Source: an uncultured virus (IMG/VR IMGVR_UViG_3300013232_000003)
Lineage: Duplodnaviria; Heunggongvirae; Uroviricota; Caudoviricetes
IMG/VR virus record: IMGVR_UViG_3300013232_000003
Span: 62,001 to 120,546 of that record
Reading direction: 5' to 3' (one strand)
DNA length: 58,546 bases
Shown here: piece after piece, positions 668 to 40,850 of the stretch
Position numbering within the stretch: position 1 is the stretch's first letter
How the letters are laid out: each line of letters opens with the position of its first letter
Position numbers and translations under genes: made by a program
Notes under the pieces: model-generated
Seen by the model: the letters and a program-made list of their open reading frames with translations, nothing else
Databases searched by the model: none
Told to the model about the DNA's origin: nothing

Positions 668-692
668 CTTAGTGGGCAGTTTCCTCTACGCT
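664..692 (+). promoter_or_regulatory. sigma70-type promoter of the HNH cassette
   Basis: TTGACT-17 bp-TACGCT, followed by AAGGAGG RBS and GTG at 714. Confidence 0.6.
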
Positions 693-713
693 AAAAGAAA
701 GGAGGGGGAAACT

Positions 714-1157
714 GTGAAACCCGTAAAGCTTAGAGAACTGTCCCCAGAAAACAAACGTAACTACGACCGTTGGTCGAACATGAAGCAAAGATGTCGCAAC
801 CCAACTAGTCCAGAATGGAAAAACTATGGGGCTAGAGGCATAGGCATACACAAGCGATGGGATTCCTTCTGGAACTTCTGTGAGGATATAGGTGTAGCTC
901 CTCCCGGAAAGTCCTTGGATCGAATCGACAACAACGGAGACTACGGCCCCGATAATTTCCGGTGGGCCACGCCGTCCGAACAAACGTACAACAGGAGAAA
1001 GTATCCAAGAACAAAATATAAAGTAACCCCGCAAGTAGTTAGGAGAGCGCGTTCTCTTCAAAAGAAAGGATTCACCACACGGGCCGTGGCTAAAACATTA
1101 GGCATTGGGAAAACTTCCGCCCACAAAATCTTTCAGGGAGTATACGGTGCAGGCTAA
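714..1157 (+). mobile_element. free-standing HNH-type homing endonuclease with C-terminal HTH
   Basis: RWSNMKQRC.NP...NYGARGI...SLDRIDNNGDYGPDNFRWAT motif; HTH-like tail (TTRAVAKTLGIGKTSAHKI); start moved to GTG 714 on RBS. Confidence 0.85.
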
Positions 1158-5855: not shown

Positions 5856-6305
5856 GTGATGCCGATCAAGATGAACAAGAACGCCAGCATCATCCGCAAG
5901 GCCGCAGAAAAGAAATTGATTGGAAAAAAGGGAACCATGGTCATGACCAAGGACAACACCTCCAAGTCTGCCCCGGTGGGAGATGTCGTGAAGTCGGCCG
6001 AGAAGCTGGCTGAAGTACGAGTCGGTATCGGTTCAACCCTCAACATGGGCAACTACGAGAGCCTGCGTCTCGGCGTGGACATCTCTCTTCCCAGCACTGA
6101 AAAGGATCTCGAGAAGACGTTCAACAAAGCCTTGGAGCTGGCTGAGAAGAACTTGGAGCGGATGATCACGAAGTTCAAAGGCCCGCAGAATCAGGTTCTC
6201 CAGCCCGGCAGCTCGAAGCGTTCAGCACAGGAAGTTCTCGACGATGATGAGATTGACGAGGACGATCTGGAGTCGGACAACCCGGACGACGAAGTGGAGC
6301 TCTAA
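5856..6305 (+). CDS. conserved phage hypothetical protein with acidic tail
   Basis: AAGGAG RBS; GSTLNMGNYESLRL motif; acidic C-terminus; directly upstream of RecA. Confidence 0.75.
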   Translation: MMPIKMNKNASIIRKAAEKKLIGKKGTMVMTKDNTSKSAPVGDVVKSAEKLAEVRVGIGSTLNMGNYESLRLGVDISLPSTEKDLEKTFNKALELAEKNLERMITKFKGPQNQVLQPGSSKRSAQEVLDDDEIDEDDLESDNPDDEVEL

Positions 6306-7396
6306 TGAAGGCATCCGACATGGTGACCAAGATGAACAAGGAGTTCCCCCACTCGGTTAGGGAGGGGGTGTCCCTCAGGGACATGACAGTTCCGCGGCTA
6401 CCATCTGGATGCTTCTCCTTCGATCTGATTACCGGAGGGGGTATTCCCATGAGCCGTGTCTCCGTACTGCACGGGGACAAGAGCAGCGGCAAGAGTACCT
6501 TCGCCCTCAGGGTGGCCGGGAACTTCCAGAAGATGTATCCACATCTGACAGTGCTCTACGTGGACTTCGAGAACACCTTCGACTATGCCTGGGCCAAGTT
6601 CTTCCTCAACCCGGAGAAGAACTTCGTGCTGATCTCCCCGGACTACGGAGAGCAGGGTATCGACATGGTGAAGGCCTTCGCTACCAAGACCGAGGACGTG
6701 GGGCTCATCATCGTGGACTCCCTCGCTTCGATCATCCCCACCGCGGAGGCAGAAGCAGGGGCCACGGAGAACCCGCAGATCGGCCTTCAGGTCAAGCAGA
6801 TCAACCGTATGATCCGAGGGCTGCTCCCTCCGATGACCATGGCCAAAAAGATGGGCAGGGACATGACGATCCTGTTCATCAATCAGGTCAGGGCAAACAT
6901 GAACGCCGGGAAGTTCGGGGCGCAGACCTCACAGCCGGGTGGGAAGTATCTCGGGCACGTTGCATCTCTCGACTGCCGGTTCTACGCCAAGGAGTACAAG
7001 AAGAAGGGCACGGTGGCCTATGCTGTTTTGCAGTCCGTGGTGGTGGACAAGAACAAGGTGGGCCTGCCCAAACGATCAAGCGACTTCCTCACGTTCCTCA
7101 CCCGCTACGGCAAGTTCAAGCCGGGGGATGTTGACGAGATCAAGACCGTGATCGCGTACGCCAAACGGGCAGGTCTCATCGAACGGGACGGTGCCACTTG
7201 GAAGATCAAGCTGGTGAAGAAAGCCAAGAAAGGCGAAGCGGAAGCTGAACCGTTGACCTTTCCAAAGCTCGACGCCTTGATTGCCGCACTGGAAGAACAA
7301 CCGAGACTGTTCGCCAAAGTGAAATCGATTACACTTCGCACCTGCATTGAGAACCCCGTGCTGCTGGGGGATGCACAAGCAGAGGAGAGTGTATGA
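6305..7396 (+). CDS. recA: RecA/UvsX-like recombinase
   Basis: FDLITGGGIP, Walker A GDKSSGKST, YVDFE, IIVDSLAS, FINQVR, PGG, KNKV. Confidence 0.92.
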   Translation: MKASDMVTKMNKEFPHSVREGVSLRDMTVPRLPSGCFSFDLITGGGIPMSRVSVLHGDKSSGKSTFALRVAGNFQKMYPHLTVLYVDFENTFDYAWAKFFLNPEKNFVLISPDYGEQGIDMVKAFATKTEDVGLIIVDSLASIIPTAEAEAGATENPQIGLQVKQINRMIRGLLPPMTMAKKMGRDMTILFINQVRANMNAGKFGAQTSQPGGKYLGHVASLDCRFYAKEYKKKGTVAYAVLQSVVVDKNKVGLPKRSSDFLTFLTRYGKFKPGDVDEIKTVIAYAKRAGLIERDGATWKIKLVKKAKKGEAEAEPLTFPKLDALIAALEEQPRLFAKVKSITLRTCIENPVLLGDAQAEESV

Positions 7397-15473: not shown

Positions 15474-18400
15474 GTGGCCTTTCCGAAGAAATGCAAAGAG
15501 TCGGAGTGCCCGTACCACGCAGATAGAGGCGAAGTTCCATATGATGGACCCACGGCCACTGAACTCATCATCGTCGGAGAGAGTCCTGGTTTTGAAGAGA
15601 ACCGCATCGGTCGGCCCTTTTCAGGGATATCTGGCCGTTTCCTCATGGCCCTTCTGCGCCACATCGGTCTCGAACGGGACGAAGTTCTCCTCACCAACGC
15701 CGCCCGCTGCCGCATCGACAAGGACAAAGACAGCATCAAGAACCAGAACCTTGCGCTGAAGACCTGCCGCAAGAAGCTGGAACGTGTGATCCACAACGTC
15801 CGTCCGCGGGTCATCGTTGCCCTGGGTGGGGTTGCCCTTCGGCAGCTCACAGGTAAACAGAAGATCATGGAGAACCGGGGCAAGTTCTTCGACTCCCCGG
15901 AGTTCGACTGCAAGATCTTCGCGACGGTACACCCCGCGTGGATTCTCAGGCAGGGTGCCAGAGACGGGTTCTGGGATCAACCGATCGAGAAGATGAGCGC
16001 GACGGAGCGCATCCTGTTCATGGACTTCGAACAGGTCCAGAAGTACCTCAAGGACCCATCCATAGCTGGGATCAACACCGAGCGGTACACCAAAGGCAGA
16101 AAGTCCGATCTGGCGAAGCTCAAGGCAGCGGAAGTGCTGGCCGTGGACTTCGAGACAAACGGGCTGGATATCGAGAGCCCCAACACGAGAATCTTGAGCA
16201 TCGGGTTCTCCGCGGAAGAAGGGAAATCGATTGTATTTTTGCCAAAGAGAGATGGAAGTTTTCCCGAGCCGGTCCTCCAACTCCTCAGCGATCCTAACAT
16301 CACCAAGATCGTGGCAGCCAGACCCTTTGAAGAGCGGTGCGCCGTTAAGCTGGGACACCCCATGCCAGGGGACACCGTCCACGACGTTCTTTCAATGGCT
16401 CACGTCCTCGACGAGAACTTTTCAGGCGGATATAGCCTTGAGAAGGTTGCGGATCTCTACACTGGGCTCAAAAACATCAAGTCCATAGCTCAGGGGATGC
16501 GGGCCAACCTCGAGGAAGTGGACAAAGAAACGCTGGTCAAGTACAACGGGGTTGACTGCGATGCTACCTTGCGAGCTTTCCACATCATGCGCCGGATGCT
16601 CAGTAAAGATCCGGCTCTTGCCAATTACTACACCCACTTCACGCAAAAGATGCAGTCCATGTTCGCGGACCTGCACCACAACGGATGCCTCATCGACACC
16701 GAGGCTCTTGGCAGGGGTGAACGTGAACTGGAGGCAATCGCAGAGGCTTCCGAGAGGGAGGCTCTCAGGCTCATCCCAACAGCGATCACGACTGAAGAAA
16801 AGCACGAAGGGAAGCTGAGGCTCTCCCGTGATGCCCTCGTCCGGGACTACCTGTTTACCCACCCGGAAGGGAAGCGGCTCACGCCCAACCCGAAGTACCT
16901 GACTCCGAAGAAGAAAGAGCCGCAGATCACGGAGGATCACCTCAAACAGTTCCGCGGTCGGTTCATTGAGAACTACCTGCGGATGAAGAAGGCCAAGAAG
17001 ATCCTCTCCACATACCTCAAGAAGCTCTGGGTTCAAATGCACCACGACGGTCGTGTGTATCCCGACACGATCTTCACCCGCACGGTGACCGGTCGAACCG
17101 TCATGGTAAATCCCGCGATCCAGACGATCCCCCAGCGTGGGGAGTTCGCCAAGCACGTGAAGAAGGCCTTCGTGGCTGACCCAGGATGGGTCATGGGGGC
17201 CAGAGACCTCTCCCAGTCCGAGATCCGCATAGTGGGCTGGCTGGCACAGGACCCCAACATCCTAGGTGCCCTAGCGGCCAACGTAGACGTCCACACGAAG
17301 ACCGCGGCGATCATCAACAAGGTCCCGATCGAACAGGTCACGAAGGACATGCGCCAGAAAGCCAAGGCGTGTATCGCCGAGGGCGAACTGGTATCGGTCA
17401 AAAGCCCCAACGGGTGGTTTGCCTTCGTTCCGATCGAGAAGGTGGAACGGGACATGAAGGTATGGGATGGACAGGAGTGGGTTTCACACGATGGGGTCAT
17501 CTTCCAAGGGGAACGAGAGGTAATCACGTATGACGGTCTCACCGCAACGCCAGACCACACCGTCTTTCTTGAGGCAGGGGGACATTGTGACTTCGAGCAA
17601 GCCAAGGCCGAAGTCAGAGGCATTGCTACTGGCGATGCTGCGTTCGAAGGTAGTTGGGAGCCTTTCTATAACGGGAACCCACATCATTCCCGGAAAGCAC
17701 CGAAAAGTCCAAGCCCTGTGCCGCGTATGTGGAAAGACAAGTTTCCTGTCGGTAGACAACGTCCTCTCTGGAAGAACAAAGAACTGCCTCTGTCAGAAAG
17801 GGGTGAAATACAACCGGGATGCGAGAGCCGTTGTGTTGGGCGACCGGTACGATGCTATTCTTCAGAGAACTACCAATCCAACCAGTCGCTACTGGCCCAA
17901 CTACGGTGGCAGGGGGATCAAACTGAGATTCAGCTCCCGAGAATCCTTCATTTCCTGGATGCTCAAAAACCTGCCCCACCCGACGTACAAAGGTGTGCAG
18001 ATCGACAGACAAAACAACAACGGGCATTACGAGCCGGGAAACCTACGATTGGTTTCGCAGTTGATGAACCTCACGAACAAGCGAACCAGTGTGAAGGTCC
18101 CCTTCAAGTCTGTCTTGATAAATGCCCAGCATCTCTGGCACGTCTTGAAGACGATGTATCCCAGGTACCCGTTCAGCAGCGAGTGGACCAGCAAGTTAGC
18201 GAGAAGGGGGATGTCAGGGGACAAGATACTGGCGATGGGGATGAAGCGTCTGTACGAAGGGTGGTCAGGGTCTATGATATCCGAAACGCCGGACCCCGCC
18301 ATCGTTTCACTGTACAGGGAAAAATTGTCTCGAACTGCAATTTCGGGTTCATTTATGGGATGAGCGCCAAGAAGTTCCAGGGATACGCCAAGGACGAGTA

Positions 18401-19067
18401 CGGGATCGAACTGTCCCTTGAACAGTGCGAGGCCGTGCGGCAAGCGTTCTTCGCTCATCCTCATGGATACTACAAGCTGCTCGACTTCCACCGTAAACAG
18501 GAGAGTGAGGCACAGCACCGCGGGTATGTTCGTTCACCGATCGGCCGTATCCGAAGGCTACCCAACGCGCAGCAGAGCAAAGACCGCATGGCCATGGGCG
18601 AAGCGTTCAGACAGGGGATCAACTTCCCCGTGCAGTCCTTCTCGTCTGACCTTGGACTCGTGGGCATGTGGTTCTTCTGGAAGTGGGTGAAGAAGAACAA
18701 CCTCGAGGACAAGATCAAGATCATGTGGTTCATCCACGACGCGGTGGTATTCCAAGCCACAGCGGAGGAGTTCCCCAGGGCGATGCGGATGCTCAAGTAC
18801 GCTATGGAGACGATGGCGGTGAAGTACATGAAGAAGCACTTCGATCTCGACGTTGGCTACCCTGTCGCATCAGACGGGAAGGCTGGGTCTGGGTGGGCAA
18901 CCTTGCAGGAGTTCTGCGATCTCTGCGGAGCAGTGAAGATGGAAGGCACCTGCCGGAAGTGCCGAGACGTACAGCTCAAGGCGGCGGAAGACGCCGAGAA
19001 GAAGAGAAGAGAAGAAACAGCAGCCGCTGGTAGAACTAGAATCAGACGCACCCTCGTGCTAAACTAA
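15474..19067 (+). CDS. polA: family A DNA polymerase with N-terminal family-4 uracil-DNA glycosylase domain, 3'-5' exonuclease and intein
   Basis: UDG: IIVGESPG, GRPFSGISG, HPAWILR; exo: VDFET, YNGVD; pol: TVTGR, DLSQSEIR, KA-[intein]-CNFGFIYG, NFPVQS, IHDA. Confidence 0.95.
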   Translation: MAFPKKCKESECPYHADRGEVPYDGPTATELIIVGESPGFEENRIGRPFSGISGRFLMALLRHIGLERDEVLLTNAARCRIDKDKDSIKNQNLALKTCRKKLERVIHNVRPRVIVALGGVALRQLTGKQKIMENRGKFFDSPEFDCKIFATVHPAWILRQGARDGFWDQPIEKMSATERILFMDFEQVQKYLKDPSIAGINTERYTKGRKSDLAKLKAAEVLAVDFETNGLDIESPNTRILSIGFSAEEGKSIVFLPKRDGSFPEPVLQLLSDPNITKIVAARPFEERCAVKLGHPMPGDTVHDVLSMAHVLDENFSGGYSLEKVADLYTGLKNIKSIAQGMRANLEEVDKETLVKYNGVDCDATLRAFHIMRRMLSKDPALANYYTHFTQKMQSMFADLHHNGCLIDTEALGRGERELEAIAEASEREALRLIPTAITTEEKHEGKLRLSRDALVRDYLFTHPEGKRLTPNPKYLTPKKKEPQITEDHLKQFRGRFIENYLRMKKAKKILSTYLKKLWVQMHHDGRVYPDTIFTRTVTGRTVMVNPAIQTIPQRGEFAKHVKKAFVADPGWVMGARDLSQSEIRIVGWLAQDPNILGALAANVDVHTKTAAIINKVPIEQVTKDMRQKAKACIAEGELVSVKSPNGWFAFVPIEKVERDMKVWDGQEWVSHDGVIFQGEREVITYDGLTATPDHTVFLEAGGHCDFEQAKAEVRGIATGDAAFEGSWEPFYNGNPHHSRKAPKSPSPVPRMWKDKFPVGRQRPLWKNKELPLSERGEIQPGCESRCVGRPVRCYSSENYQSNQSLLAQLRWQGDQTEIQLPRILHFLDAQKPAPPDVQRCADRQTKQQRALRAGKPTIGFAVDEPHEQANQCEGPLQVCLDKCPASLARLEDDVSQVPVQQRVDQQVSEKGDVRGQDTGDGDEASVRRVVRVYDIRNAGPRHRFTVQGKIVSNCNFGFIYGMSAKKFQGYAKDEYGIELSLEQCEAVRQAFFAHPHGYYKLLDFHRKQESEAQHRGYVRSPIGRIRRLPNAQQSKDRMAMGEAFRQGINFPVQSFSSDLGLVGMWFFWKWVKKNNLEDKIKIMWFIHDAVVFQATAEEFPRAMRMLKYAMETMAVKYMKKHFDLDVGYPVASDGKAGSGWATLQEFCDLCGAVKMEGTCRKCRDVQLKAAEDAEKKRREETAAAGRTRIRRTLVLN
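17370..18335 (+). mobile_element. intein (322 aa) in polymerase motif B
   Basis: Starts CIAEGELV, block B TPDH, ends VYDIRNAGPRHRFTVQGKIVSN followed by Cys+1; removal restores RQKAKACNFGFIYG. Confidence 0.93.
17530..18363 (+). CDS. HNH homing endonuclease in +1 frame overlapping the intein
   Basis: CRVCG..KNCLC, ILQRTTNP..WPNYGGRGI, QIDRQNNNGHYEPGNLRLVS..N..NKR; GAGAGG RBS 9 nt before ATG 17530. Confidence 0.88.
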   Translation: MTVSPQRQTTPSFLRQGDIVTSSKPRPKSEALLLAMLRSKVVGSLSITGTHIIPGKHRKVQALCRVCGKTSFLSVDNVLSGRTKNCLCQKGVKYNRDARAVVLGDRYDAILQRTTNPTSRYWPNYGGRGIKLRFSSRESFISWMLKNLPHPTYKGVQIDRQNNNGHYEPGNLRLVSQLMNLTNKRTSVKVPFKSVLINAQHLWHVLKTMYPRYPFSSEWTSKLARRGMSGDKILAMGMKRLYEGWSGSMISETPDPAIVSLYREKLSRTAISGSFMG

Positions 19068-23167: not shown

Positions 23168-26100
23168 TCACACCACCGTTAGGGTAAAGGTTTTGGACAC
23201 GGACAGGGGCTGCTGGTCGGTAACCTTGACCGTGAAGGTATACCCCCCGGGTGCGTACGGTATGCCATACACATTCCCGCCTTCGTCTAGTTCCATTCCA
23301 GGAGGAAGTGTACCATCCGTCTGCTCGAAGTCGTAAGGGAATACTCCCCCCTCAACATCGATAGGTACGAACTGAACAGTGCCAGTGGTCGAATAGATGA
23401 AGTACTTTTCAAACGTGGGTGAGGAGGTTATCTTGAGCTCCGCGATGGATTCGGGAATGGGTATCTCTGGAAGAACGGTATCACCCAAGTACTCGGTCAG
23501 CCCACCACCAGTGAAAGTGAACCCAGTGAACAAGTTGGTTGTAGCGGTTACTCCTAACCATCCTGCGTCACGAACGAACTGATTGAAATAGGAGATGGCT
23601 AGAAGCCGATCGGACGCCGCGGTCTGGTAAGTTATCTTCACCACGCAGTTCTCCACGGGAAGCGCGTTCTGCACCGTGATCTCGTTGGCTCTCGCGTCCG
23701 TGCTTATGGTTATGGTCCCTGGAACCCACGCTTTGTTTTTCCCGTTCAAGCAGGTGATGGACGCAACGCTGGAGATCTTCGGCCCATGGGTCTTTATCTT
23801 GGTTTTTGAACTCGATTTGAATCTCCAAGAGATGTTTCCGGAAGATCCAGAAACTCTGGAAATAATGACAGCCTCCTGCTTTGTGGAGTTGGTTGGGGAT
23901 GCAACCCCCATGATTTTGGTCTGAAGATCGACCTTCTTCCCCGCGGAATCGAATCCGCTGAATGTACAGAGAGCCAAGGTACCCCCGGAGTATAGATATA
24001 ATTTCTCGTTGATAACGGAAAGCCCGTGGCCCTGCCCATCGAACTTCACGATAGTGGCCCCGTGAATATCGTTATCCGTCAACCCAGCAGGGGGCGTGAT
24101 CTTATGCCAAGTAGCCCCAGAGTCGGAGGAGAATACCCCCATGTTGCCGTAGGTATTTCCTTGGACTCCGCCTCCTCCACCACTGCCCCATGGGAAGTAA
24201 TAATCGTTAGCGCCGTAGTATGCAGGATCAGCAGATTGAGATATGGCTGATCCCACGACTACACCAAGGCCAAGATATTCCTTTAGAAATATCTTGGCAG
24301 CCTTTATCCCCAACGTAGGGTGTGTAAAGGCGTGTTTCGACGTAGCCCAATGTTCTACTCCTAAAGGTTCTAGAGATACTACGTCTTTAATGACGAGATC
24401 GGCGTATCCGGTTTTACCTTCAGGAAGAGTGGCCGTGCATATTGCTTGATAATGAATACCACGAGTACCACCACCGGTAACTACCTCTTCATTATAGATA
24501 CCACTGACAGAAACATATCCATTCATATTCATAAAGACGATTTCTGTAGCGTACCCAAAGTACGGACGGTTATACTCCGAGTTTGCTGGCCAAATAATGT
24601 AGTTTACTCGGTACTGGTAATTAGGCCCAACATTTGCCCCAACGTACCCTGCGGTGTGTACCGACGAAGGCATAGCCGGGCGTCTGCCACGAGCTAACAA
24701 CTCTGCCTTGACCTCGTTTGAGCTTGATTCAACGAATTCGATCATATCGTCCGTGCTATTAGTTACAGGGGAGTCTGGCATATAGCCGATAGTGCTGCCA
24801 TCATCTATGAGTCCAAAACTAGCAGACCTCAACGACCATAGCTTCATCCCTGGAGGTATGTTGACCAAACTTCCATCGGAAGTATTGACTCCGAGCGTCG
24901 GAGGTTGTACATGGGTTACTCTCTCAAATCCCATAGTCAAGAAGGTACTCTCCGTGACAATCGCCCACATGCCGGTGCCCAAATCCCCCAACGTGTCCGA
25001 TGGAGTGTGCGATGGAGGTGGGGTCCATTGACTAGGATCGCATACCTCTCCGTCATGCACATTCGGTTCGACCGAATAGCCATAGTTGGTAGGATTTTGG
25101 ACTTTGGTCCAGTGTAGAGTCACCACGAACTCGAAAGCATACAGTATCGTGTCGTTCCCAATGTATGTCCCGGTCTCCCCGTCGCTGTGAAACAAATGGC
25201 CATGGTTTACCGGACGACCGGGAGGAGCCTTGTGTGCCGACGCTGCGTAATCCGCATCGTGATGCCAGTACCACCCCTGGCCTTTAACCATCTCTCCATT
25301 ATGCCGCTCGCTGCGCTTGGGAACCCCCACGCGTAGATCTAGCTCTGAGAAGCTATTCATTAGAACCACTCTGCCTTTATCACAGTACACCGGAGTGCGT
25401 GGGAACTCAATTATAGTAGGGTAGCCCGATGAATTAGGGGAGTTGTACGGGATTCTTCGGGTATTCATTTTCACGCGATAGTGCCCATTAAACCTCCCGT
25501 CTACTTCTTGGTACCACTCCTTGGGGGTTACGTACATAGCGTGAACCGTTTCACCCTTGTCCCATGTCTTGTGGAGTTGGTAGAGCGAGTAATTGGTCCA
25601 AAAGGATACGACTGGGGTGAGATCGTTGACCCCTCGTCCCGATGCTCCCTTAGTGTAGATGTACGTATTAGCTACGGTACTGCCCCAAGGATCTGAGATG
25701 CTTCCTGGAACTTCTTCGACACCCGCGAGTGTGGGAACCCCGACCAAGTTGACCGTGATGCGAGCCAGCGTGGGATTCAGCGAAACCCGATTCCCGGCAT
25801 CCATGGCCCAAGCGTAGGCAGTCTTCAAACCCTCCGTGGCATCCAAGAAGGTGTAGCTGGACTGGTACGGAGTGACGGGGTTGGTTTTCGCCGGGACAGT
25901 TTTCCATCGGGGGTCGTTGGAGTACGGCGCGGGGGTGGCTGACTCCACAATCATGTACTTCGTGACGGGGAGGTACCCTGTACCAACTAAAGTTTTGATC
26001 TTGACCTTAAACGAGCTCGACGTCTCAGCCGTGAAGGTAAAGTCCTCGATCCTGGGCAGTGCTTGAGCAGGCGGAGCGTCCAACGCCTTGCCAACCGGAA

Positions 26101-26785
26101 TAGTTCCATCCTCACCGAATACCTCGGTCATGCCCAATGCCCCAGCGCTGATGTTTCCTTTCACGTCCATAGCCCAACCGTAGATCTCGAACCGATAGTG
26201 AGCGATGTCCTTAGAATCGCTGGTGGTATGCCAGTGCTCCACGGCCTTCGAAGAATCAAGAGGGAATCTAGTGTAGGTGGAGGGGTACCATCCAGTAGAC
26301 GTCTTCTCCGGGGTATCGTTGGTGTAGGTGATCATGTACCCAAGCACGCCGGAAGTATCTGTAGCGGTGAAGGTCTGAGGCACGACATCAAACGTGGACG
26401 AAGACGCTGGAAGCGTAAAGGTGACCGTTGGCCCTTCGCTATCCGCGGTTTCGACCGGGGGATCGGGGATCGTTACCGGATCGGTAGGGGGAATATCTTC
26501 GAGAGAACTGCCGACGTACTTCCCAGCCGCCGTGGGGAACCCGTAGGATTTCTCACCCCAACTCGTTATAGGCATCTGGGGAAAGGCATTATCATATAGG
26601 GCCTTTGCTTTGCCAGAAGCGTATCTCAAGAAGTACCCCGAGATCTTCTCGAGAACTTTCTCAGCGCGAATGCACAGCTTCGTGGCAAGCTTGTACTTCT
26701 TGGGATTCCCATAGGCGTCGTACGGGTTGTCTGGCCCGTAAACTTCGGTGGAAGAAGTCTTACTAGGTGTTTCGGTTCCCGCCAT
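23168..26785 (-). CDS. large virion/receptor-binding protein with Ig-like, Asp-box and C-terminal putative Ig domain
   Basis: Two YxWAMDxxGN.S repeats, SSDSGATW Asp-box, GGVFPY..GTLPPGM..GIP..PGGYTFTVKVTD. Confidence 0.75.
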   Translation of the reverse strand: MAGTETPSKTSSTEVYGPDNPYDAYGNPKKYKLATKLCIRAEKVLEKISGYFLRYASGKAKALYDNAFPQMPITSWGEKSYGFPTAAGKYVGSSLEDIPPTDPVTIPDPPVETADSEGPTVTFTLPASSSTFDVVPQTFTATDTSGVLGYMITYTNDTPEKTSTGWYPSTYTRFPLDSSKAVEHWHTTSDSKDIAHYRFEIYGWAMDVKGNISAGALGMTEVFGEDGTIPVGKALDAPPAQALPRIEDFTFTAETSSSFKVKIKTLVGTGYLPVTKYMIVESATPAPYSNDPRWKTVPAKTNPVTPYQSSYTFLDATEGLKTAYAWAMDAGNRVSLNPTLARITVNLVGVPTLAGVEEVPGSISDPWGSTVANTYIYTKGASGRGVNDLTPVVSFWTNYSLYQLHKTWDKGETVHAMYVTPKEWYQEVDGRFNGHYRVKMNTRRIPYNSPNSSGYPTIIEFPRTPVYCDKGRVVLMNSFSELDLRVGVPKRSERHNGEMVKGQGWYWHHDADYAASAHKAPPGRPVNHGHLFHSDGETGTYIGNDTILYAFEFVVTLHWTKVQNPTNYGYSVEPNVHDGEVCDPSQWTPPPSHTPSDTLGDLGTGMWAIVTESTFLTMGFERVTHVQPPTLGVNTSDGSLVNIPPGMKLWSLRSASFGLIDDGSTIGYMPDSPVTNSTDDMIEFVESSSNEVKAELLARGRRPAMPSSVHTAGYVGANVGPNYQYRVNYIIWPANSEYNRPYFGYATEIVFMNMNGYVSVSGIYNEEVVTGGGTRGIHYQAICTATLPEGKTGYADLVIKDVVSLEPLGVEHWATSKHAFTHPTLGIKAAKIFLKEYLGLGVVVGSAISQSADPAYYGANDYYFPWGSGGGGGVQGNTYGNMGVFSSDSGATWHKITPPAGLTDNDIHGATIVKFDGQGHGLSVINEKLYLYSGGTLALCTFSGFDSAGKKVDLQTKIMGVASPTNSTKQEAVIISRVSGSSGNISWRFKSSSKTKIKTHGPKISSVASITCLNGKNKAWVPGTITISTDARANEITVQNALPVENCVVKITYQTAASDRLLAISYFNQFVRDAGWLGVTATTNLFTGFTFTGGGLTEYLGDTVLPEIPIPESIAELKITSSPTFEKYFIYSTTGTVQFVPIDVEGGVFPYDFEQTDGTLPPGMELDEGGNVYGIPYAPGGYTFTVKVTDQQPLSVSKTFTLTVV

Positions 26786-26815: not shown

Positions 26816-28600
26816 TTAAGTATAGCGCAGAGCGTCGGATAGCGTGAGCGTATTGGCCACCTTGTGGGTGTTGGGAATGATCGGGTCTGACACAACAGAA
26901 CCGCTCCCAGTTCCGATGCTGTTCGTGGCAGTGACGATGAAGAAGTACTCAACCCCTTGTGCGAGCCCGGAGATCACCAAGGGGCTCGAAGCTCCAGTTG
27001 CCGTAAACGCGGTTCCGATAGCTTTCACGGAGTAGCTGGTTACGACATCCCCACCGTTGTACGTCGGGGCATCGAAAGCCACAGACACCGACGTCTTGGA
27101 CGGAGTGCAAACCACATTCTTTGGCGGGCCTGGAAACGTGGGTTCCACGAACCCGTGGCTCAACTGGTTCAACACAGCAATATCGAAATGAGCAGTCACT
27201 TCCCCAAGCCCGTACTTGTTGAAGGAGACCAAGTAGGCCCCAGTGTACCCAGCTCCATACGTGTCATACCCGGTAAGCTCTTTATCTAGCCCAGTAGCTC
27301 GAAGAATATGGCACGTTCCGTACCCAGAGTAGGCGTTATAGTAGTCGTCGTACTCCATCAAGTCTTCAATGGCGAAAGAAGCAAACGCGAAGGCGCGTCC
27401 GGGACTATGGAGGTACCCCAGGTCTATCATGAGAGTATAACCAAGCACCGGGGATATATCCGTATCATCGATACCTTGCCCAAAGCACAAGTTCACACAG
27501 TTCAAACTACCGGTAGTCCTATTACTGTCAGGCCCAGTCCACGACTCCAGCGCAAAGTATGGATCGTCCCAAACCTTGGACGGAGGCAATGGAGTCCTGC
27601 GCTTATAGGTAGTGAAAAACACAGGCTCAGACTCAGGCCCTTCCCCGGTCGCGTTAGTAGCACTAACCGTGATCTTGTACAGCACGCCATCTACTAGTTT
27701 GGCGGTGTTGGAAAACTCGTCGACCGAAAACGTATTGACCCCTACGCTTGGGGAGACTTCCCACTTTACAGCCTCATACCCATAGATACAGATCTGCGGG
27801 CGAGCGTAGATGGTGTACTTCTTTGGAGTGTCCGAAATGGGAGGGTACCACACCATCCAAAATCCCCCCGATGAGCCATTGGCCGTGACGCCAACATCGT
27901 ATGGAGCGAGAGGAAGCCCTACCCACGGGGCTGGAGTAGCTGAGGCAGTAGGATCAGACCACACCCCATATCCAGTGCCACCGGCAGGATATGGTACTGG
28001 ATTGTGCCACAACCACCTACCATCCTGTCCGTAAGTTTCGGTGTGAGCAGATATCTGAAAGGTATAGTCCACCCCGTTAGTGAGAAAGGTCATCCGTAGT
28101 GGGGACTTCGTGCTTCTGCACCAGTAGTAGTACTTCCCCGAGCTTTGGGAATACACCTTGCCAACATAGAAATCGATTGGATAATGCCCAGGATTCTCAG
28201 GTGGCAGAAACTCTACGAGCGCCGACTTATCATAGGCCGTTACTCGCGTGATGATGGGAGGCCCGGCCAGCAAGGACTTGTCACTCGTGGCGAAGTCACG
28301 GATAGTCAGTTCATCGGCGAAGTCTGAGTCCGATACCTGCTTGAACCGGGCCTCGATGTAGTCGGTCATCGAGAGTTGCTCTGACACTTGCACCTTGTAC
28401 TCGACGTCGACCGTGATGTATTCAGTCGGGGTGGACTCCTCGCTCTCTCCCGCGGAGTTCTCAGCCTTGGCCACGAAGTAGTAGTTCTTACCCACCTGAA
28501 GCCCGTCTACCGTGACGGTCTTCTTCTCAGACACGGCTTCCTTGTTCTCCGCGGCCTGCCCACCAACGACGATCGCCTTTACTCTATAGGTAGTACTCAT
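26816..28600 (-). CDS. fibronectin type III repeat tail protein
   Basis: Several FN3 motifs (GL..GV.Y.F.V.A.N..G.G..S); starts with a half FN3 domain. Confidence 0.8.
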   Translation of the reverse strand: MSTTYRVKAIVVGGQAAENKEAVSEKKTVTVDGLQVGKNYYFVAKAENSAGESEESTPTEYITVDVEYKVQVSEQLSMTDYIEARFKQVSDSDFADELTIRDFATSDKSLLAGPPIITRVTAYDKSALVEFLPPENPGHYPIDFYVGKVYSQSSGKYYYWCRSTKSPLRMTFLTNGVDYTFQISAHTETYGQDGRWLWHNPVPYPAGGTGYGVWSDPTASATPAPWVGLPLAPYDVGVTANGSSGGFWMVWYPPISDTPKKYTIYARPQICIYGYEAVKWEVSPSVGVNTFSVDEFSNTAKLVDGVLYKITVSATNATGEGPESEPVFFTTYKRRTPLPPSKVWDDPYFALESWTGPDSNRTTGSLNCVNLCFGQGIDDTDISPVLGYTLMIDLGYLHSPGRAFAFASFAIEDLMEYDDYYNAYSGYGTCHILRATGLDKELTGYDTYGAGYTGAYLVSFNKYGLGEVTAHFDIAVLNQLSHGFVEPTFPGPPKNVVCTPSKTSVSVAFDAPTYNGGDVVTSYSVKAIGTAFTATGASSPLVISGLAQGVEYFFIVTATNSIGTGSGSVVSDPIIPNTHKVANTLTLSDALRYT

Positions 28601-31600
28601 ACCAGTGTCACCGTGGCCCTTCCATCTCCAGCAACAACGTCCACGATCTCCGGGGCGTCAGGGACGTATTCAGTTCCAGCGCCCTCGGTTGAATCCGAGT
28701 ACCGATAGATGACTCGCAATGTACCACTCTTGGTGCAGGTGAGAACCCCGCCTACCACCGCGGCGAGCTGGGACACGATGTCTACCGGCTCTGTGGTCTC
28801 TACGTCGAGGTTGGAGCCCAACACCTTGAAGTCCGCGACCTCCCAACTCAACGTCACACTCTTGGCGTCACAGAGCTCTTGGGCGATGGCCTTGGCAGTC
28901 GTATCCGTAGTCCACTCCTTAGTGATGGGCTTGGCATACGGCAGGGACAACCTAGCTGGACGGTTCCTTCCCCACGAGGAGAGGGAAACTTTATCGTAGG
29001 TCACGGTGTAGTCCCGCTTCTCCAGGAAGAACTTGCCCTGGAGTTTCCACGACGTGGCCCCTTTGATGCGGGTGTACACCGCGAATCTCTCGATCTCGAA
29101 GTTGCGAGAGATGTCTGAACAATCCACCGAATCGTAGAGCGAGGTGCCATCTCTCCACTCGTCGTATCCTACCCAATCGATATCGACCTCCGCGCAGAAG
29201 CTGTCCAGGCTGTACGTGATGGTGCAGCTTGCCACCTTCTGGGTACAGTCGTACCCATCGAGGGTCATCTGGTACTCCATGTCGATGACCGTAGTGTCTA
29301 GGCTCTCTTCCAAGTTGAACTGAAGCGTCTTGGCAGTAAACAGCCTCGTGTACTCCACGAGACTATAACGAGCGTCGAAGGACAGGAAGGCTGTCTCCCG
29401 AAGCGTGTTCTCCAGCCTCAACGCGGTTCCGTACCTATTCGTAAACATGAATATGGACCGCATCAAGCTGAAGTTGATGGCCGTGCCCGTTGCGGCGTAC
29501 ACTCTAATGGGCTCCAGTTCCAGGAACAGGTTCTGGCTGATGTACACGGTGTCCTTGATCGTGTTCTGAATGTTAAAAGAGTTGTTCAGATCGTTGACCC
29601 GAATAATGTTGTTCCTGAGCTCTGGGTCCAAGAACACGGCCAGATAGTATTTGCTAAGCCCAGAGAACTCGCACTCGTCCGGATTCCGAGCAGTTAGCCT
29701 ATCACCAACTGCCAAGGCCTCCATGAAGCTCTTGTTGGCGACACTGTAATCCCAAGACACTGCGTCCGAAAGGATCAACGGCTCGGACATCGTGGAGTAC
29801 TTATCCAATTGCGGCGTTGCGTACGATCCCATGCTCATGGGCTCGATAAACGACCTACCAAACGTCTTGGAAGCGACGACATCATCAGACATCGACAACG
29901 AATTCCCAAACTTTGGATTGGATATGTGCTTCCTTGTCAGAGAGTCCGAGAAGTTGGAGAACAGCTCGAGGAATGGGAACTCCCGGGAGATGATCGGTGC
30001 AGGGGAGTTTACCTCCATTGCGTTGGTGCTCTTGCGCCCTAGCACAAGAGCCCGGTCTAGTTGATCGTTGACCGAAACCGACTCGGCTACCTTGCGGGAG
30101 AGCACCACCGAAGCAGACACGGTGTCGGATACCGTCAGGGTCTCGGAGGACGACCTACCGAAAACTACCGACCGATCGGTAAGCTCTCCGATCCCAAGGT
30201 GCATCACGAAGTCTTCAAGGTGGGAGGTGATCGGATCGTAGTAGTCCGATACCGTCAGGCTCTCCGTGATGTACTCAATGCGTGCGAACAAGTAGTCGAT
30301 GGCATCGGTGATGGACACCGACTCCGCGACAGCCTTGCTGCCCAAACGATCCCGCAGCAGCAGATCCGTAACCGAAATCGAACTTGCCAGCGTACGGTCG
30401 AGCGTGAAGGAACGGGCAACCGCGTCTGCTACGGACAGAGAGGAGCTGGCACGTCCGGTGATGTTTACGGACGGATCTTGAGCAGACGAAATTGAAATCG
30501 ATTCGACAATTCCATAGTCCCGCGTGATCTGTCTGCGGAGCTCATCAGTGACGGCCAGGGTCTCAGCTACCGTGCGCGAATACTCCTGGCCCACGAAGTC
30601 GGAGATCGTCAGGGACTCACTGATCGGACTGGCCGTGATGGTGTTCGCGGAAACCATCGTGTCCAGCAGCGTAAGAGCTTCGGCAACGATCGTCTCCCGG
30701 TGCCGGTGTAGTACATCGGAGATCTCGAGGGTGTAGTGGAATGGGGGGTGTGCCACGTTCCACGAAAGCTCTACCTTGCTATCGGATATAGTGATGGGGT
30801 TCGCGTGTTTGTGTGTATAGTTACGACCAACCCTCACGGTATCGGAAACGGATAACGTGTTGTCCGTAGGGAGGGCTCTGGTTCTCACGCTTGGGCGCTT
30901 GACGGTGGAGTTAAGCGTCAGGGATTCGGAGAATCCCTCGCCAAGGATTATGAAATATTGAACCTCGTCTCTCCAGTCATACGACTGGATGTGGTTGTAC
31001 TGGTGGACCCTCTGTTTTTGAAGGGTTGTGTCGGTTTCCCATGAAGGGGTTGGAACACCACTCACTCCACCCGTCCACCACCCATATTTTTTGCTGCGGG
31101 AAGACGGGGGAGCTTGCCCCCCAAACTGCTGGAATTTGAGAATGATCCACGCGATACCTGTGCCACCATGGGGATCATTTTGAACAAGGTAGCCACCACA
31201 ATCGCCATGACCACCATAACCGCATCCGTCATGAACCCGTTCGTAGGACGTGCCAGTAGCCGGGAACCCATCTTGATTGTAGGTCCAGAGAGAGCCACCA
31301 TTTCCGCTCTCGGCCCAAGCGAGACCTTCACTCTCGTAGTAGGGTCCGTTGCCAATGCCAGGGTCAATCCCAGCAAGCAATATCCCCGACATCGCGATCG
31401 CCCCGCCGTGCGTCCCATCACGTCCTGGATTTGCTAGTCCAGAACCAGAACCACCGTACCCGGGATCGAAGGTACCTCCTTCAACGAAGATGCCTGTTCC
31501 ACCGGTGTACGGGGGATCGTTCGGGGACGCGATTCTGCCCAGCCCGGCCATATAGCCTACGGCCAATCCTCCAGGGTTATTCTGTCCGACACCGCCGCCA

Positions 31601-33765
31601 CCGCCGCCTTGACCCCCGTTATTGCCTGGGATGGAGTCAGTACCAGCACCACCTCCTAGAGCATGAACTCCAATGACAATGGTGTCTTCACCGTTCCATC
31701 CGTAATTGAGGAACGCCCCCTGACCACTACCACGGCCACCACCCCCAACGGTGACCTCGTAGTACGTGTTCATCCTCACCAGCTTAGTGGTCTCACGGAC
31801 ATCACCACCACCGCCACCACCGCCAGCCGTTCCACCACCACCGCCCCCACCGCCGATCCCAAGTAGCGTGACGGTGACATAACCACATTTTCCAGCGCTG
31901 GGGGAGGCCGAAGGCTTCGAGGATTCCTCCCCGGCGTCTCCGTACATGGACATGGTTTCGGAGATCTTAGCGTTCCGAGTAGTACGATACCGAACCAAAG
32001 TGTCAGTGACAGTAAGGTCTTCCATGCAACTGGACCGGTTATGCACACGAGTCCAGTTGTCGTGAATATCCAATGGGTTGTGGAAGTGCCTATCCCAAGC
32101 CTTGTGGCAGGTTTCGGTCAACGTCATGGGGTTCATCAGCTTCTTGTTGAACTGACGAGTCCCCTTGGTAACGTCGCTGATCGTGATGGAGTTCGCGTGT
32201 ACCGGAGGTGACAGAACAAACCCGCGCTTCTGAATATCGCTCAGCACCAGTGCTGGGTTGTGGATGAAGTGCTTGACGTTGATCCCGCGGCGAACTACAT
32301 CCGCAGCCGTCAGGGTACTCGGAAATTTGCGGGTGATGTTTACATACTGAAGCTTGAGCCGATCTTCGAACACAAGCCGGGTCTGCTCCCGCAGCAGGGG
32401 CATATTGAGTAGGACCTTAGAGGTCTGGAATGCCTCCTGCTGGCCAAGCATCCAGTCTGCGTACTTCTTGATGTCGGTCTCTTTCCACGGTTGCTTGTAA
32501 ACGAAGATGTCGGAAATGCCACCGTTAATGCGGCCGCCAGTTGTCCCGTTTCTGTACCGACGAATGCCCCAATACGTCGCTGCCCCGGAGTTGTACGGTC
32601 CCATGGAACCAGAACCGACTAGCCTGCCGTTGACGAATATCTTTCGATTATTAGTGATCGGGCCAACGGTCAGACAAAGATGATGCCACTTGTTGGGGGT
32701 TACCACTCCTGGGATACTGACAATGTCGGTGTATCCCTGAGCGAAAACGGTAACGGACCCAGTGACAGGGTCGAAATACATTCCTTGAGCGTAGTTGGTG
32801 GTGGCGGAAGTATTCTCACACCAGAGATACCCAATAGTGGTCTGGGTATTGTCGTAGAACACCATCGCAGAAATCGTGAAGGAACTCATAGCCCCCAAGT
32901 TAGAAGGGGGAGATTCGAGCAGAGCGTACCCGTAGAATGTAGTAATGGGCTGTGGGGTCCGACCCATACTGGGGTACAAGTCAGTTACTCTCGATGGGGG
33001 ATACCCAAAGGGATAGCTGAGGTTGGCGGCTGTGATCTTATCTATGCACCCATCGCGTCCGGTCGGGATGTACACATGGCATTGAGCCGGGTCCAGGGCC
33101 AACAGCTCTCGAGGATCTCCCTTTCTGCCGTTGAAAGGGGTGACGGCCTCAAGAGTGCTGGTGCGGAAGAGCCTGGGTCTGTTACTTCTAACCGGTGCCG
33201 GAATGAACGTCGGCTTGTACCTGGACTGCGTGAACGTGGACCACTCGTAGTAGTTCCGAATCTCCTCCTGAGACAGAGGAGTTTTGAAGAGCCCGAAGTC
33301 CTCTACTTCTCCCAAGAACGGATTTGACGTAGCTCCGTTCCCGCGGAACACGCCGACTGAGGACTGGTTAAGCGTGAGGGTTCCAACGGTTGTCTCGTCG
33401 GAGAGAACGCGGATTCCATTGACGTAGACATGACGGAGAGCCTTGCTCTCCTGGACAACGACAGCTTGGTTCCACGTATCAAGTGGGAACGTGCCAGTAC
33501 CGCACGACATCGTGACCGCGGTGCTCGCGTCGTCCCGCAGTTTGAAGATCAACTGGCTGTTGGTCTTGTCAATCTCCAGTGAAAGGTACGGAGTACCGCT
33601 GTCGGACTTGCCTTCGCTGTACAGGCAAAGCGTGGCTTCCGAAGACGAACTGTCGGCCTTTGCAAATAGGCTGATGGAGAAGGCATCCAGATTGCCGATC
33701 TGGACTGAGTCTACCGAGATGAAGTCAGCGGCAGTTCCCCCAAAGCGAAACGAATTACCGCTCAT
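28597..33765 (-). CDS. large tail protein: LamG domains, Gly-rich domain, ~21-aa repeats, hub-like C-terminal region
   Basis: LamG motifs (WNQAVVV..YVNG, KWHHLCLT..FVNG), GGGGGGG..GGGGGG segment, E.L.VSD repeats. Confidence 0.8.
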   Translation of the reverse strand: MSGNSFRFGGTAADFISVDSVQIGNLDAFSISLFAKADSSSSEATLCLYSEGKSDSGTPYLSLEIDKTNSQLIFKLRDDASTAVTMSCGTGTFPLDTWNQAVVVQESKALRHVYVNGIRVLSDETTVGTLTLNQSSVGVFRGNGATSNPFLGEVEDFGLFKTPLSQEEIRNYYEWSTFTQSRYKPTFIPAPVRSNRPRLFRTSTLEAVTPFNGRKGDPRELLALDPAQCHVYIPTGRDGCIDKITAANLSYPFGYPPSRVTDLYPSMGRTPQPITTFYGYALLESPPSNLGAMSSFTISAMVFYDNTQTTIGYLWCENTSATTNYAQGMYFDPVTGSVTVFAQGYTDIVSIPGVVTPNKWHHLCLTVGPITNNRKIFVNGRLVGSGSMGPYNSGAATYWGIRRYRNGTTGGRINGGISDIFVYKQPWKETDIKKYADWMLGQQEAFQTSKVLLNMPLLREQTRLVFEDRLKLQYVNITRKFPSTLTAADVVRRGINVKHFIHNPALVLSDIQKRGFVLSPPVHANSITISDVTKGTRQFNKKLMNPMTLTETCHKAWDRHFHNPLDIHDNWTRVHNRSSCMEDLTVTDTLVRYRTTRNAKISETMSMYGDAGEESSKPSASPSAGKCGYVTVTLLGIGGGGGGGGTAGGGGGGGDVRETTKLVRMNTYYEVTVGGGGRGSGQGAFLNYGWNGEDTIVIGVHALGGGAGTDSIPGNNGGQGGGGGGVGQNNPGGLAVGYMAGLGRIASPNDPPYTGGTGIFVEGGTFDPGYGGSGSGLANPGRDGTHGGAIAMSGILLAGIDPGIGNGPYYESEGLAWAESGNGGSLWTYNQDGFPATGTSYERVHDGCGYGGHGDCGGYLVQNDPHGGTGIAWIILKFQQFGGQAPPSSRSKKYGWWTGGVSGVPTPSWETDTTLQKQRVHQYNHIQSYDWRDEVQYFIILGEGFSESLTLNSTVKRPSVRTRALPTDNTLSVSDTVRVGRNYTHKHANPITISDSKVELSWNVAHPPFHYTLEISDVLHRHRETIVAEALTLLDTMVSANTITASPISESLTISDFVGQEYSRTVAETLAVTDELRRQITRDYGIVESISISSAQDPSVNITGRASSSLSVADAVARSFTLDRTLASSISVTDLLLRDRLGSKAVAESVSITDAIDYLFARIEYITESLTVSDYYDPITSHLEDFVMHLGIGELTDRSVVFGRSSSETLTVSDTVSASVVLSRKVAESVSVNDQLDRALVLGRKSTNAMEVNSPAPIISREFPFLELFSNFSDSLTRKHISNPKFGNSLSMSDDVVASKTFGRSFIEPMSMGSYATPQLDKYSTMSEPLILSDAVSWDYSVANKSFMEALAVGDRLTARNPDECEFSGLSKYYLAVFLDPELRNNIIRVNDLNNSFNIQNTIKDTVYISQNLFLELEPIRVYAATGTAINFSLMRSIFMFTNRYGTALRLENTLRETAFLSFDARYSLVEYTRLFTAKTLQFNLEESLDTTVIDMEYQMTLDGYDCTQKVASCTITYSLDSFCAEVDIDWVGYDEWRDGTSLYDSVDCSDISRNFEIERFAVYTRIKGATSWKLQGKFFLEKRDYTVTYDKVSLSSWGRNRPARLSLPYAKPITKEWTTDTTAKAIAQELCDAKSVTLSWEVADFKVLGSNLDVETTEPVDIVSQLAAVVGGVLTCTKSGTLRVIYRYSDSTEGAGTEYVPDAPEIVDVVAGDGRATVTLV
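29700..30940 (-). repeat. ~21-aa degenerate protein repeats (xE[ST][LI][TS][VIL][ST]D)
   Basis: e.g. SESLTISD, AETLAVTD, AESVSITD, TESLTVSD, SETLTVSD, AESVSVND; second block near 31940-32370. Confidence 0.75.
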
Positions 33766-40463: not shown

Positions 40464-40850
40464 TTAAAGCGCTACGCGCATTTTGATGGTGCCATAGTAC
40501 CAGAAATCATTATCTGGGGCACTAGCAGGGGTCACCTGTTGGAACGAAAGAACCGGTGGTTCCTCATTCCTGAACTGCCCGTTTACAGTAGTTCCGTCTG
40601 GCATTTCTATAACGACCGTGGCCGCTGGATTGGTATTGAACAGAGCGAACAAAGCCTTCACGGTCTCACGGCGCTGCCACCCAGTGGTAGAAGTTCCCTC
40701 CAGCGTAAGAGGTCCTCCACTGTAGGTGCGATAGTTTTGGACCACGAGATTTCCGTAGATGGTCCGATCCGCCGTGCCAGCGGCGTAGGTGTTCTGGTAC
40801 TCGTCGGACCACAACATGTCTCGGTCCAGGGTTACATCCCCGATCTTCAT
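40464..40850 (-). CDS. distal tail (Dit-like) protein
   Basis: Immediately after the tape measure gene; WSDEY...RTIYGNLVVQ...PLTL pattern. Confidence 0.65.
   Translation of the reverse strand: MKIGDVTLDRDMLWSDEYQNTYAAGTADRTIYGNLVVQNYRTYSGGPLTLEGTSTTGWQRRETVKALFALFNTNPAATVVIEMPDGTTVNGQFRNEEPPVLSFQQVTPASAPDNDFWYYGTIKMRVAL

Follow-up and report, generated by a model that had tools for sequence, protein, structure and literature searches.

Can one stretch of DNA within a phage DNA polymerase gene encode a protein-splicing element in one reading frame and a separate nuclease in the next? The question is raised by a locus in an uncultured virus of the class Caudoviricetes (IMG/VR record IMGVR_UViG_3300013232_000003). 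The window, i.e., the whole stretch of 58,546 nucleotides analyzed here, corresponds to bases 62001-120546 of this 120,546-bp record, which bears direct terminal repeats. It contains the gene for a family A DNA polymerase (PolA) precursor interrupted by an insert of 322 codons. An initial annotation read the insert as an intein with a complete HNH endonuclease in its +1 frame, and proposed as checks a profile search of both frames, frame-specific ratios of nonsynonymous to synonymous substitution rates (dN/dS, or omega), and an examination of sequencing reads for compensating indels. We find that the insert is a genuine intein, that the double open frame exceeds chance, and that the nested layout is a family trait. 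The explanation that we favor, and regard as likely when taken as a whole, is that the intein harbors a separate nuclease gene in its +1 frame, which is internally initiated and whose product acts as a homing endonuclease.

The host gene and the insertion site are well defined. In the polymerase precursor, Pfam recognizes a uracil-DNA glycosylase (UDG, E 6.3e-26), a 3'-5' exonuclease (DNA_pol_A_exo1, 7.6e-9) and, in two stretches, DNA_pol_A (9.7e-57). The insertion point falls in polymerase motif B, KAKA / (C)NFGFIYGMS, where the intein-less PolA homologues P0122 and P0124 read KAKGVNFGFIYGMG; the flanks of the insert in the window are the two halves of this motif. The insertion is in frame and at a conserved site, and its removal would rejoin the exteins into an intact PolA. 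The 12 closest homologues with the same UDG-exonuclease-PolA build are 750-858 aa long and thus too short to contain an intein. The sporadic occurrence of the intein among close polymerase homologues fits a mobile element. The same intein is present at the same site in the polymerase of a related phage (P0183, encoded on a 117.7-kb contig), with 60% identity and no gaps over 322 aa. P0183 also bears the end of a second, different intein (...VVHN/T) immediately before TVMVNPAIQ, a position at which the window has no insert, and P0134 carries a related intein of the same family five residues downstream in motif B (NFGF/C...HN/CYGMS). A near-identity DNA search of the GenBank phage collection gave no match, and a scan of viral contigs for close DNA relatives, with the nuclease and then the N-extein as the query, found none.

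In the polymerase frame, the insert starts with Cys1 (17370-17372, CIAEG), carries the block B motif TxxH as TPDH at residues 60-63, and ends in KIVSN/CNFG with Ser rather than His as its penultimate residue, a position that is occupied by H, S or A in relatives. These are the coordinates and motifs that the initial annotation had read. Invariant among 61 aligned inteins are C1, D33, G34, T60, H63, D303, G308 and N322. An AlphaFold2 model of the intein frame, computed with 60 relatives in the alignment, predicts a Hint fold. In a VIA comparison with ~48,000 PDB representatives, ranks 1-33 were all intein, Hint, BIL or Vint domains, and 28 chains reached Z>=8; the top match was the Mtu RecA intein (2imz_A), with Z 14.3 and a root-mean-square deviation (rmsd) of 2.0 over 107 aligned residues. 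The 15 matches of the intein profile to PDB sequences are weak (E 0.011-0.87), and all are inteins or BIL domains. Residues 86-290 are modeled with a predicted local distance difference test score (pLDDT) of 35-54. In the profile search of both frames, the intein frame matched phrog_26005 (function not known) over residues 20-82 and, weakly, phrog_93. The model agrees with the earlier impression that the center of the intein reads like off-frame sequence. We conclude that the insert is a genuine intein of the class-1 type, in whose model the two ends alone are folded and form a Hint domain. The intein is predicted to splice, because its blocks are intact and the gene that it interrupts is presumably essential for replication.

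Read one base later, the same DNA encodes a protein of 277 residues. It matched seven PHROG families, of which five are named HNH endonuclease, the best being phrog_374 (E 4.1e-26, residues 49-195). The database homologues (n=165) include several that start with the +1 reading of block B. An AlphaFold2 model based on 97 homologues has a mean pLDDT of 91.3 and is confident for residues 30-275. The strands of the Cys cluster (residues 59-64 and 70-74) are modeled at pLDDT 96-97, and this CxxC...CxC cluster is probably a zinc ribbon, whose zinc binding is suggested by the sequence. The C-terminal helix has pLDDT values of 93, 93 and 73 in the 10-residue blocks spanning residues 251-277. Across 98 aligned nucleases, C64, R106, G126, R128, F134, R160, Y167, P169 and N171 are invariant; among the conserved Asn residues of the motif, N171 is thus accompanied by N163 and N183, each at least 90% conserved. 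The window nuclease is full length and carries every invariant residue of this alignment.

The two frames remain open together throughout 834 nucleotides. The +1 open reading frame (ORF) begins 160 nucleotides into the insert, overlaps both splicing regions and extends 28 nucleotides (18336-18363) past the last intein codon, and its TGA stop is located within the extein codons for Met-Ser. This arrangement, including the ORF boundaries and a ribosome-binding site of its own, had been described correctly in the initial annotation. Synonymous shuffles of the nuclease ORF contained on average 10.1 stops in frame 0, and 0/20,000 were stop-free. When the codons were resampled according to the usage of the window itself, the mean was 12.2 frame-0 stops and again none was stop-free. 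The reverse shuffle gave P = 0.001. Openness of frame 0 is cheap in the +1 register, because frame-0 stops need a third-position T in the nuclease frame followed by AA, AG or GA. The double open frame exceeds chance.

The signals that would start translation of the nuclease are made from intein codons. The Shine-Dalgarno (SD)-like motif is read from the codons for R-E-V, and the nuclease ATG consists of the block-B Tyr codon TAT and the G of the next (Asp) codon. An ATG on the block-B Tyr/His codon (ending in AT, followed by G) is found in 36/69 unique +1-nested inteins, window included, with the SD motif at a distance of 8-10 nucleotides. The three intein codons preceding this shared ATG are mostly (K/R/Q)-E-V and read AAGGAGGT, AGAGAGGT or CAGGAGGT. 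At the SD position, the Glu/Lys codons of the ATG-sharing set end in G in 27 cases vs A in 5, compared to 1842:1255 in exteins (Fisher p 0.0035), a test that counts related sequences and is indicative only. The 33 relatives that lack the shared ATG mostly have P, D or N in place of Glu, and possess other ATGs nearby, often with an SD motif. Ribosomes would most likely reach the nuclease by initiating internally on the polymerase mRNA, and the presence of an SD motif and ATG suggests that nuclease expression is decoupled from translation of the polymerase.

The arrangement is not restricted to the window. We fetched 243 loci encoding relatives of the nuclease, from viral, metagenome and genome contigs as well as four annotated phage records, and defined a locus as nested if the nuclease shares its strand with an ORF of 350 codons or more that encloses it in a different frame. 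The nested layout is present in 82/243 loci, 74 at +1 and 8 at +2. At the other loci, the nuclease genes are free-standing and the other frames are open for only ~10-130 codons, which serves as a control. All but two of the 79 unique host segments (77/79) align to the window intein with conserved Cys1, terminal Asn and blocks A, B, F and G; the host segment of L171 is partial, and L079, which has no intein blocks, was dropped as a nested locus. After exclusion of 10 near-identical or annotated-record loci, the exteins of 67 loci were assigned with Pfam to family A polymerase (38) or SF2 helicase (22), with 7 remaining without assignment. Among the nested loci, at least three different insertion sites are used in the polymerase. 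The cultured phage and prophage cases are Streptococcus prophage Javan113 (+1), Gardnerella phage vB_Gva_AB1 (+1) and Salmonella phage SE2 (+2), in all of which the nuclease lies beneath a coding sequence (CDS) annotated as DNA polymerase. The nested layout is hence a family trait, confined neither to the window nor to actinophages. Two CDSs make up the polymerase annotation of the SE2 record (L083, NC_016763, 987-4086), and the first of them contains an intein of a different sub-type (CLHRHTQVLT...VAHN/C) with the nuclease in +2. Salmonella phage records matching the nuclease number 153.

Selection acts differently on the two frames of these relatives. For +1-nested pairs with nucleases 60-98.5% identical (n=149), the Nei-Gojobori method gave finite estimates in 19, and in 19/19 of them the nuclease frame had the lower omega, with medians of 0.115 vs 1.81 (intein center); branches are shared among the pairs, and overlapping genes bias the method. 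In the 60 most similar of the 149 pairs, conservation of the central region is much higher for the nuclease frame than for the intein frame, with identities of, e.g., 98% vs 83% and 87% vs 45%. In the relatives, these comparisons point to purifying selection on the nuclease reading and to relaxed selection on the intein reading. The closest DNA relative of the window nuclease is only 42% identical, and the dN/dS result therefore describes the family rather than the window copy.

On this basis, we propose the following model. In the polymerase frame, only the ends of the intein (~85 + 32 residues) would be functional, forming the Hint splicing domain. The ~205 codons in the middle would be read through by ribosomes translating the polymerase, yielding a disordered, stop-free linker that would be removed by protein splicing. 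One base later, the same DNA would constitute a separate 277-aa nuclease gene of the phage 'HNH' family, with a product predicted to carry a Cys cluster at its N terminus, a core of the beta-beta-alpha type and a C-terminal domain made of helices. Its translation would most likely occur by internal initiation on the polymerase mRNA, from an ATG and ribosome-binding site built from intein codons. The nuclease is most likely the homing endonuclease of the intein, and would cut intein-less polymerase alleles during co-infections, whereupon repair would copy in intein and nuclease together. In the nuclease frame, selection would act on the amino acid sequence; in the intein frame, it would do no more than keep stops out.

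Several observations weigh against this model, in addition to the limits of the codon count and the dN/dS estimates given above. No Pfam or NCBIfam model recognizes the intein. The nuclease likewise had no match in Pfam (HNH models, E<=10) or NCBIfam (E<=1), its profile had 0 matches among PDB sequences, and a Foldseek search of the PDB with its model returned nothing at E<=0.001. It is the PHROG profiles, and nothing else, that give the +1 product its HNH label, and its nuclease activity is presumed from the sequence. The position of the canonical general-base His is taken by D159-R160, of which R160 is invariant, and no His is invariant among the 98 nucleases, H150, 10 residues upstream, being nearly so. 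As a consequence of the missing canonical His, we class the +1 protein as an HNH-family relative of uncertain chemistry rather than a canonical HNH. The initial annotation's 'complete HNH endonuclease' can thus be retained as regards completeness, the PHROG families and a well-modeled fold (pLDDT 91), but not as regards the canonical His, and Pfam and NCBIfam are silent. The best VIA-align match of the nuclease model is the HNH restriction enzyme PacI (3m7k_A, Z 6.1, rmsd 3.3, 84 residues, model residues 91-189), which is tied with an unrelated axonemal protein (rank 2, Z 6.1) and does not reach the noise level of ~8 stated for the tool; the Gme HNH structure 4h9d_A has Z 2.9. At the level of expression, a promoter scan of 17000-18600 gave 0 sites. 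Finally, none of the sequencing runs contains more than 0.09 of the sampled words of the window, no RNA run is listed, and the four runs assembled onto the window do not cover 18045-18450, including the C-side junction (~18150-18260).

A quick maximum-likelihood tree with a midpoint root was built from 210 nucleases. One clade of 78 rows, with a Shimodaira-Hasegawa-like approximate likelihood ratio (SH-aLRT) support of 100, takes in all 68 +1-nested nucleases together with 4 +2-nested and 6 'free' rows. Across the root lie 131 rows, of which 128 are free and 3 are +2-nested, SE2 included. As all +1-nested nucleases share a single clade, the capture of the nuclease was not local, and the window copy would have inherited its layout. 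Two of the 6 'free' rows of the clade (L102 and L129) were reclassified as derived nested forms: L102:1244-2170 is a nested form with one host-frame stop, and in L129:1918-2942 the N block, the nuclease and the C block are in three different frames, so that L129 may be a split or fractured gene. The window also contains a free-standing 161-aa gene at 672-1157 (+), directly upstream of a primase-like ORF at 1105-2121. The initial annotation had assigned this gene (there given at 714) to the same family as the +1 product; the two indeed belong to one broad family (34% identity over residues 104-193, E 1.2e-9), but the gene at 672-1157 is placed among the free-standing majority, outside the intein-associated clade. 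Of the scenario in which a free-standing HNH invaded a mini-intein that was then purged of stops, the purging is shown by the shuffles, the capture was not local, and invasion is one possible direction of events.

Closest to the window nuclease are L003 and L087, nested forms that occupy the same site in PolA, and the free-standing L167-L169, which the tree places with the window in a starred group. L167:141-1459, on a contig from a Pseudomonadota metagenome-assembled genome, has a truncated PolA ORF that ends just past the motif-B sequence RFQAKA, and the free-standing nuclease, 49% identical to that of the window, has a start overlapping this ORF. The L167 locus contains no intein, and no C-terminal PolA half is found downstream. 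An escape of the nuclease from inteins, with L167-L169 nested in the intein clade, is suggested by these relatives but not shown: in an approximately unbiased (AU) test on 88 rows (12 near-identical clade rows dropped, 21 of ~130 outgroup rows kept), the tree with all nested forms together was not rejected (p-AU 0.873) and had a higher likelihood than the unconstrained tree. Invasion of a mini-intein and a later escape of free-standing forms are both possible courses of events. A C-terminal tail motif is shared with L168 and L169 and occurs in 8/78 clade rows and 0/132 rows outside the clade; the overlap with block F is therefore a feature of a sub-clade and not of the whole family.

A more far-reaching reading combines these strands. 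It envisages one old, essentially monophyletic intein-nuclease pair whose two members passed together between two or more gene families and became interlocked in sequence, in that (K/R)-E-V-I-x-Y-D would double as ribosome-binding site and start, and the last nuclease helix would, in the sub-clade of the window, be encoded by the bases of blocks F/G. The nuclease itself would be a PacI-like His-Me finger that lacks the His and uses the invariant Tyr167. The free-standing L167-L169, with the same PolA site and a shared C-terminal tail, would have escaped from the intein, opposite to the direction that the usual invasion model assumes. We consider this combination a rather unlikely one in its entirety.

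A functional DNA-binding or nicking protein could instead serve phage-phage competition or replication, with the intein merely providing a safe site for its gene. The lack of the canonical histidine, the close free-standing and intein-less relatives L167-L169, and the predominance of free-standing forms across the midpoint root would all be compatible with such a role. However, the nuclease clade and the intein family recur as partners in at least two gene families and at several insertion sites; the intein is sporadic among close polymerase homologues; and the closest free-standing relative, L167, is situated exactly at the motif-B position of a truncated PolA. All three of these observations fit site-specific homing, and we therefore hold a non-homing function to be distinctly improbable.

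Another possibility is that the +1 ORF of the window is a relic, no longer expressed or active, in what has become a vertically inherited, de facto mini-intein. Such decay is expected in the published model of the homing cycle, as given in the available text of Gosselin, Arsenault & Gogarten (bioRxiv 10.1101/2025.01.02.630785), and would be consistent with the unusual catalytic position and the lack of a listed RNA run. Yet the ORF of the window is full length with all invariant residues, its SD motif and ATG are kept, and its model is confident over residues 30-275; in relatives, omega is ~0.12, and Arg at the canonical position is found family-wide rather than being a lesion of the window copy. 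Decay of the window copy is accordingly a less probable account still.

The nuclease might also be produced by ribosomal frameshifting, as a fusion to the N-extein and the N-terminal domain of the intein, given that both frames are on one mRNA, that the gene contains no promoter-like site, and that the +1 frame is open from 17524, immediately before the ATG, in a run of 279 codons. This we regard as very improbable in view of the ATG and SD motif at the same place in about half of the +1-nested inteins and the other nearby ATGs in the rest. Furthermore, the homologues called as proteins begin at the same Met as the window nuclease, and the RNA fold around the SD motif and ATG is not unusual (z +0.98). 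Terminator-like sites in 17000-18600 number 4 vs 1.5 expected.

As for the integrity of the sequence itself, the four sequencing runs gave short contigs of relatives and, from another data set, one contig that is identical to the window over 17528-17678 (151 nucleotides) without an indel. The check for compensating indels thus finds none over these 151 nucleotides on the N side, while 18045-18450 has no cover. In one homologue, P0093, the called protein passes from the nuclease frame directly into block F and the C-extein. That two compensating frameshifts conceal an ordinary in-frame HNH intein, for which the low word content of the runs, the uncovered C-side junction and P0093 could be cited, is hardly credible, because an accidental frame 0 would hold ~10 stops and holds none, the layout recurs in independent loci that include finished phage and bacterial genomes, P0183 aligns without gaps, and the 151-nucleotide contig is identical. 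The two-frame layout is not an assembly error. The intein with its internally initiated, +1-frame homing endonuclease gene thus remains our preferred explanation, and the features on which it builds are listed in Table 1.

Table 1. Coordinates of the intein, the nested nuclease gene and their host gene in the window
Feature	Position	Strand	Remarks
Polymerase precursor gene (family-4 UDG + 3'-5' exonuclease + family A DNA polymerase, intein-interrupted)	15474..19067	+	1197-codon ORF
Intein, 322 aa (966 nt), polymerase frame	17370..18335	+	Cys1, TPDH, SN/C; Hint fold in model
N-terminal splicing domain, intein residues 1-85 (TPDH 17547-17558)	17370..17624	+	pLDDT 89-98 over residues 1-80
Shine-Dalgarno-like GAGAGGT from intein codons R-E-V	17515-17521	+	8 nt before ATG at 17530
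Nuclease gene, 277 aa, +1 frame of intein; ATG start, TGA stop at 18361-18363	17530..18363	+	Predicted from PHROG and AlphaFold2
Intein-frame filler, residues 86-290 (~205 aa)	17625..18239	+	pLDDT 35-54; stop-free, apparently otherwise unconstrained
Nuclease core, residues 49-195: YGGRGI, then IDRxNNNGHYEPGNLRLV, then NxxN	17674..18114	+	PHROG match span
CxxC...CxC cluster, C64, C67, C86, C88	17719..17793	+	Consensus CxxCG...CxC; C64 invariant
C-terminal splicing domain, residues 291-322, blocks F/G, VYDIRNAGPRHRFTVQGKIVSN	18240..18335	+	pLDDT 82-97
C-terminal nuclease helix, residues 256-275	18295..18354	+	Same bases as intein blocks F/G + first extein codons

Elsewhere in the window, the largest ORF by far is a single one of 5182 codons on the minus strand (40847-56395), and further large minus-strand ORFs comprise 1722 codons at 28597-33765 and 1205 codons at 23168-26785. 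Two plus-strand ORFs also have long open runs in a second frame, namely a 379-codon ORF at 6257-7393 with a 257-codon run in the +2 frame, and a 496-codon ORF at 44048-45535 with a 238-codon run in the +1 frame. These could be other overlapping genes or mere chance.

The locus has implications beyond the window. Inteins with hidden nuclease genes are missed by gene callers and annotated as decayed inteins or mini-inteins. With at least 82 loci from uncultured phages, prophages and cultured Streptococcus, Gardnerella and Salmonella phages, in which one nuclease family is found off-frame in one intein family, there is now a data set for asking how two proteins share DNA when one is under amino acid selection and the other under mere stop avoidance, how translation signals can be formed from the codons of another gene, and whether it is by invasion that inteins acquire their nucleases. 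The conserved blocks, intact despite a disordered insert of ~205 residues, suggest that splicing tolerates such a linker. The nuclease family also represents candidate site-specific enzymes against conserved polymerase and helicase motifs.

How does this arrangement compare to known systems? The closest precedents are actinophage inteins, for which the available text of bioRxiv 10.1101/2025.01.02.630785 describes endonuclease VII-like genes in 'frame 3' as well as antisense LAGLIDADG or VSR-like genes, calls the architecture rare and proposes invasion by a free-standing nuclease. These inteins resemble the one in the window in being genuine inteins with a structureless middle and a complete off-frame nuclease on the same strand, and in having DNA polymerase among their hosts. 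They differ in that the nuclease of the window belongs to another family and is in frame 2 (+1). Their second ORFs are also typically located outside the splicing domain, whereas the ORF of the window starts in block B and ends beyond the intein in the C-extein. Moreover, an architecture termed rare there is found here in about one third of the loci, outside actinophages. Phillips, DeSimone & Gogarten (bioRxiv 10.64898/2026.09.14.751524) have reported an intein in cyanobacterial dnaX whose +2 ORF encodes a LAGLIDADG endonuclease; in the part of the preprint available, they cite Gorbalenya 1998 for the out-of-frame idea. This intein shares with the window a disordered center vs a folded off-frame nuclease, SD-like motifs ahead of the nuclease start, a low dN/dS for the nuclease frame against a raised one for the intein frame, and a sporadic distribution among host alleles, but it resides in a cellular gene and has a LAGLIDADG nuclease in +2, as opposed to an HNH-family nuclease in +1 of a phage PolA.

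Other systems share single elements. The ShiLan domain (Arsenault, Gosselin & Gogarten 2025, PMC11855218, as far as its available text describes it) is an out-of-frame HNH hidden in a mycobacteriophage methylase insertion, and is similar in having an HNH-type nuclease in an alternate frame of an insertion that is kept stop-free in the host frame. It is reported to have no detectable splicing domains or ribosome-binding site, with a GTG start proposed, in contrast to the Hint fold, Cys1, TxxH, Asn/Cys junction, ATG and SD motif of the window. In fractured genes, from what is accessible of Dassa et al. 2009 (PMC2677866), the intein halves of phage replication genes likewise flank a nuclease gene that is translated separately, but there the host gene is split, giving two ORFs, and the nuclease comes from another family, while frame 0 of the window is continuous over 1197 aa. 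The PacI group (group 20), which the consulted portion of Jablonska et al. 2017 (PMC5714182) describes as mostly viral and lacking the catalytic His, with a loop Tyr acting instead, resembles the +1 product as the best fold match of its core, in the absence of a general-base His and in a Tyr in the inter-strand loop (Y167). The His-less PacI group's use of a loop Tyr, together with the weak PacI fold match, suggests PacI-like chemistry via Y167 as a lead, not a result; the match is shared with an unrelated chain, no PacI sequence similarity was detected, and the equivalence of Y167 to the catalytic Tyr is presumed. A search of the literature, with preprint supplements, which may list related cases, outside its scope, found no description of an intein that encodes a member of this nuclease family in its +1 frame. 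The design of an out-of-frame intein endonuclease has thus already been published in 2025-26 with other nucleases; what is new here is the combination of nuclease family and register, the overlap with the splicing blocks, the start signals made from intein codons, and the wide distribution.

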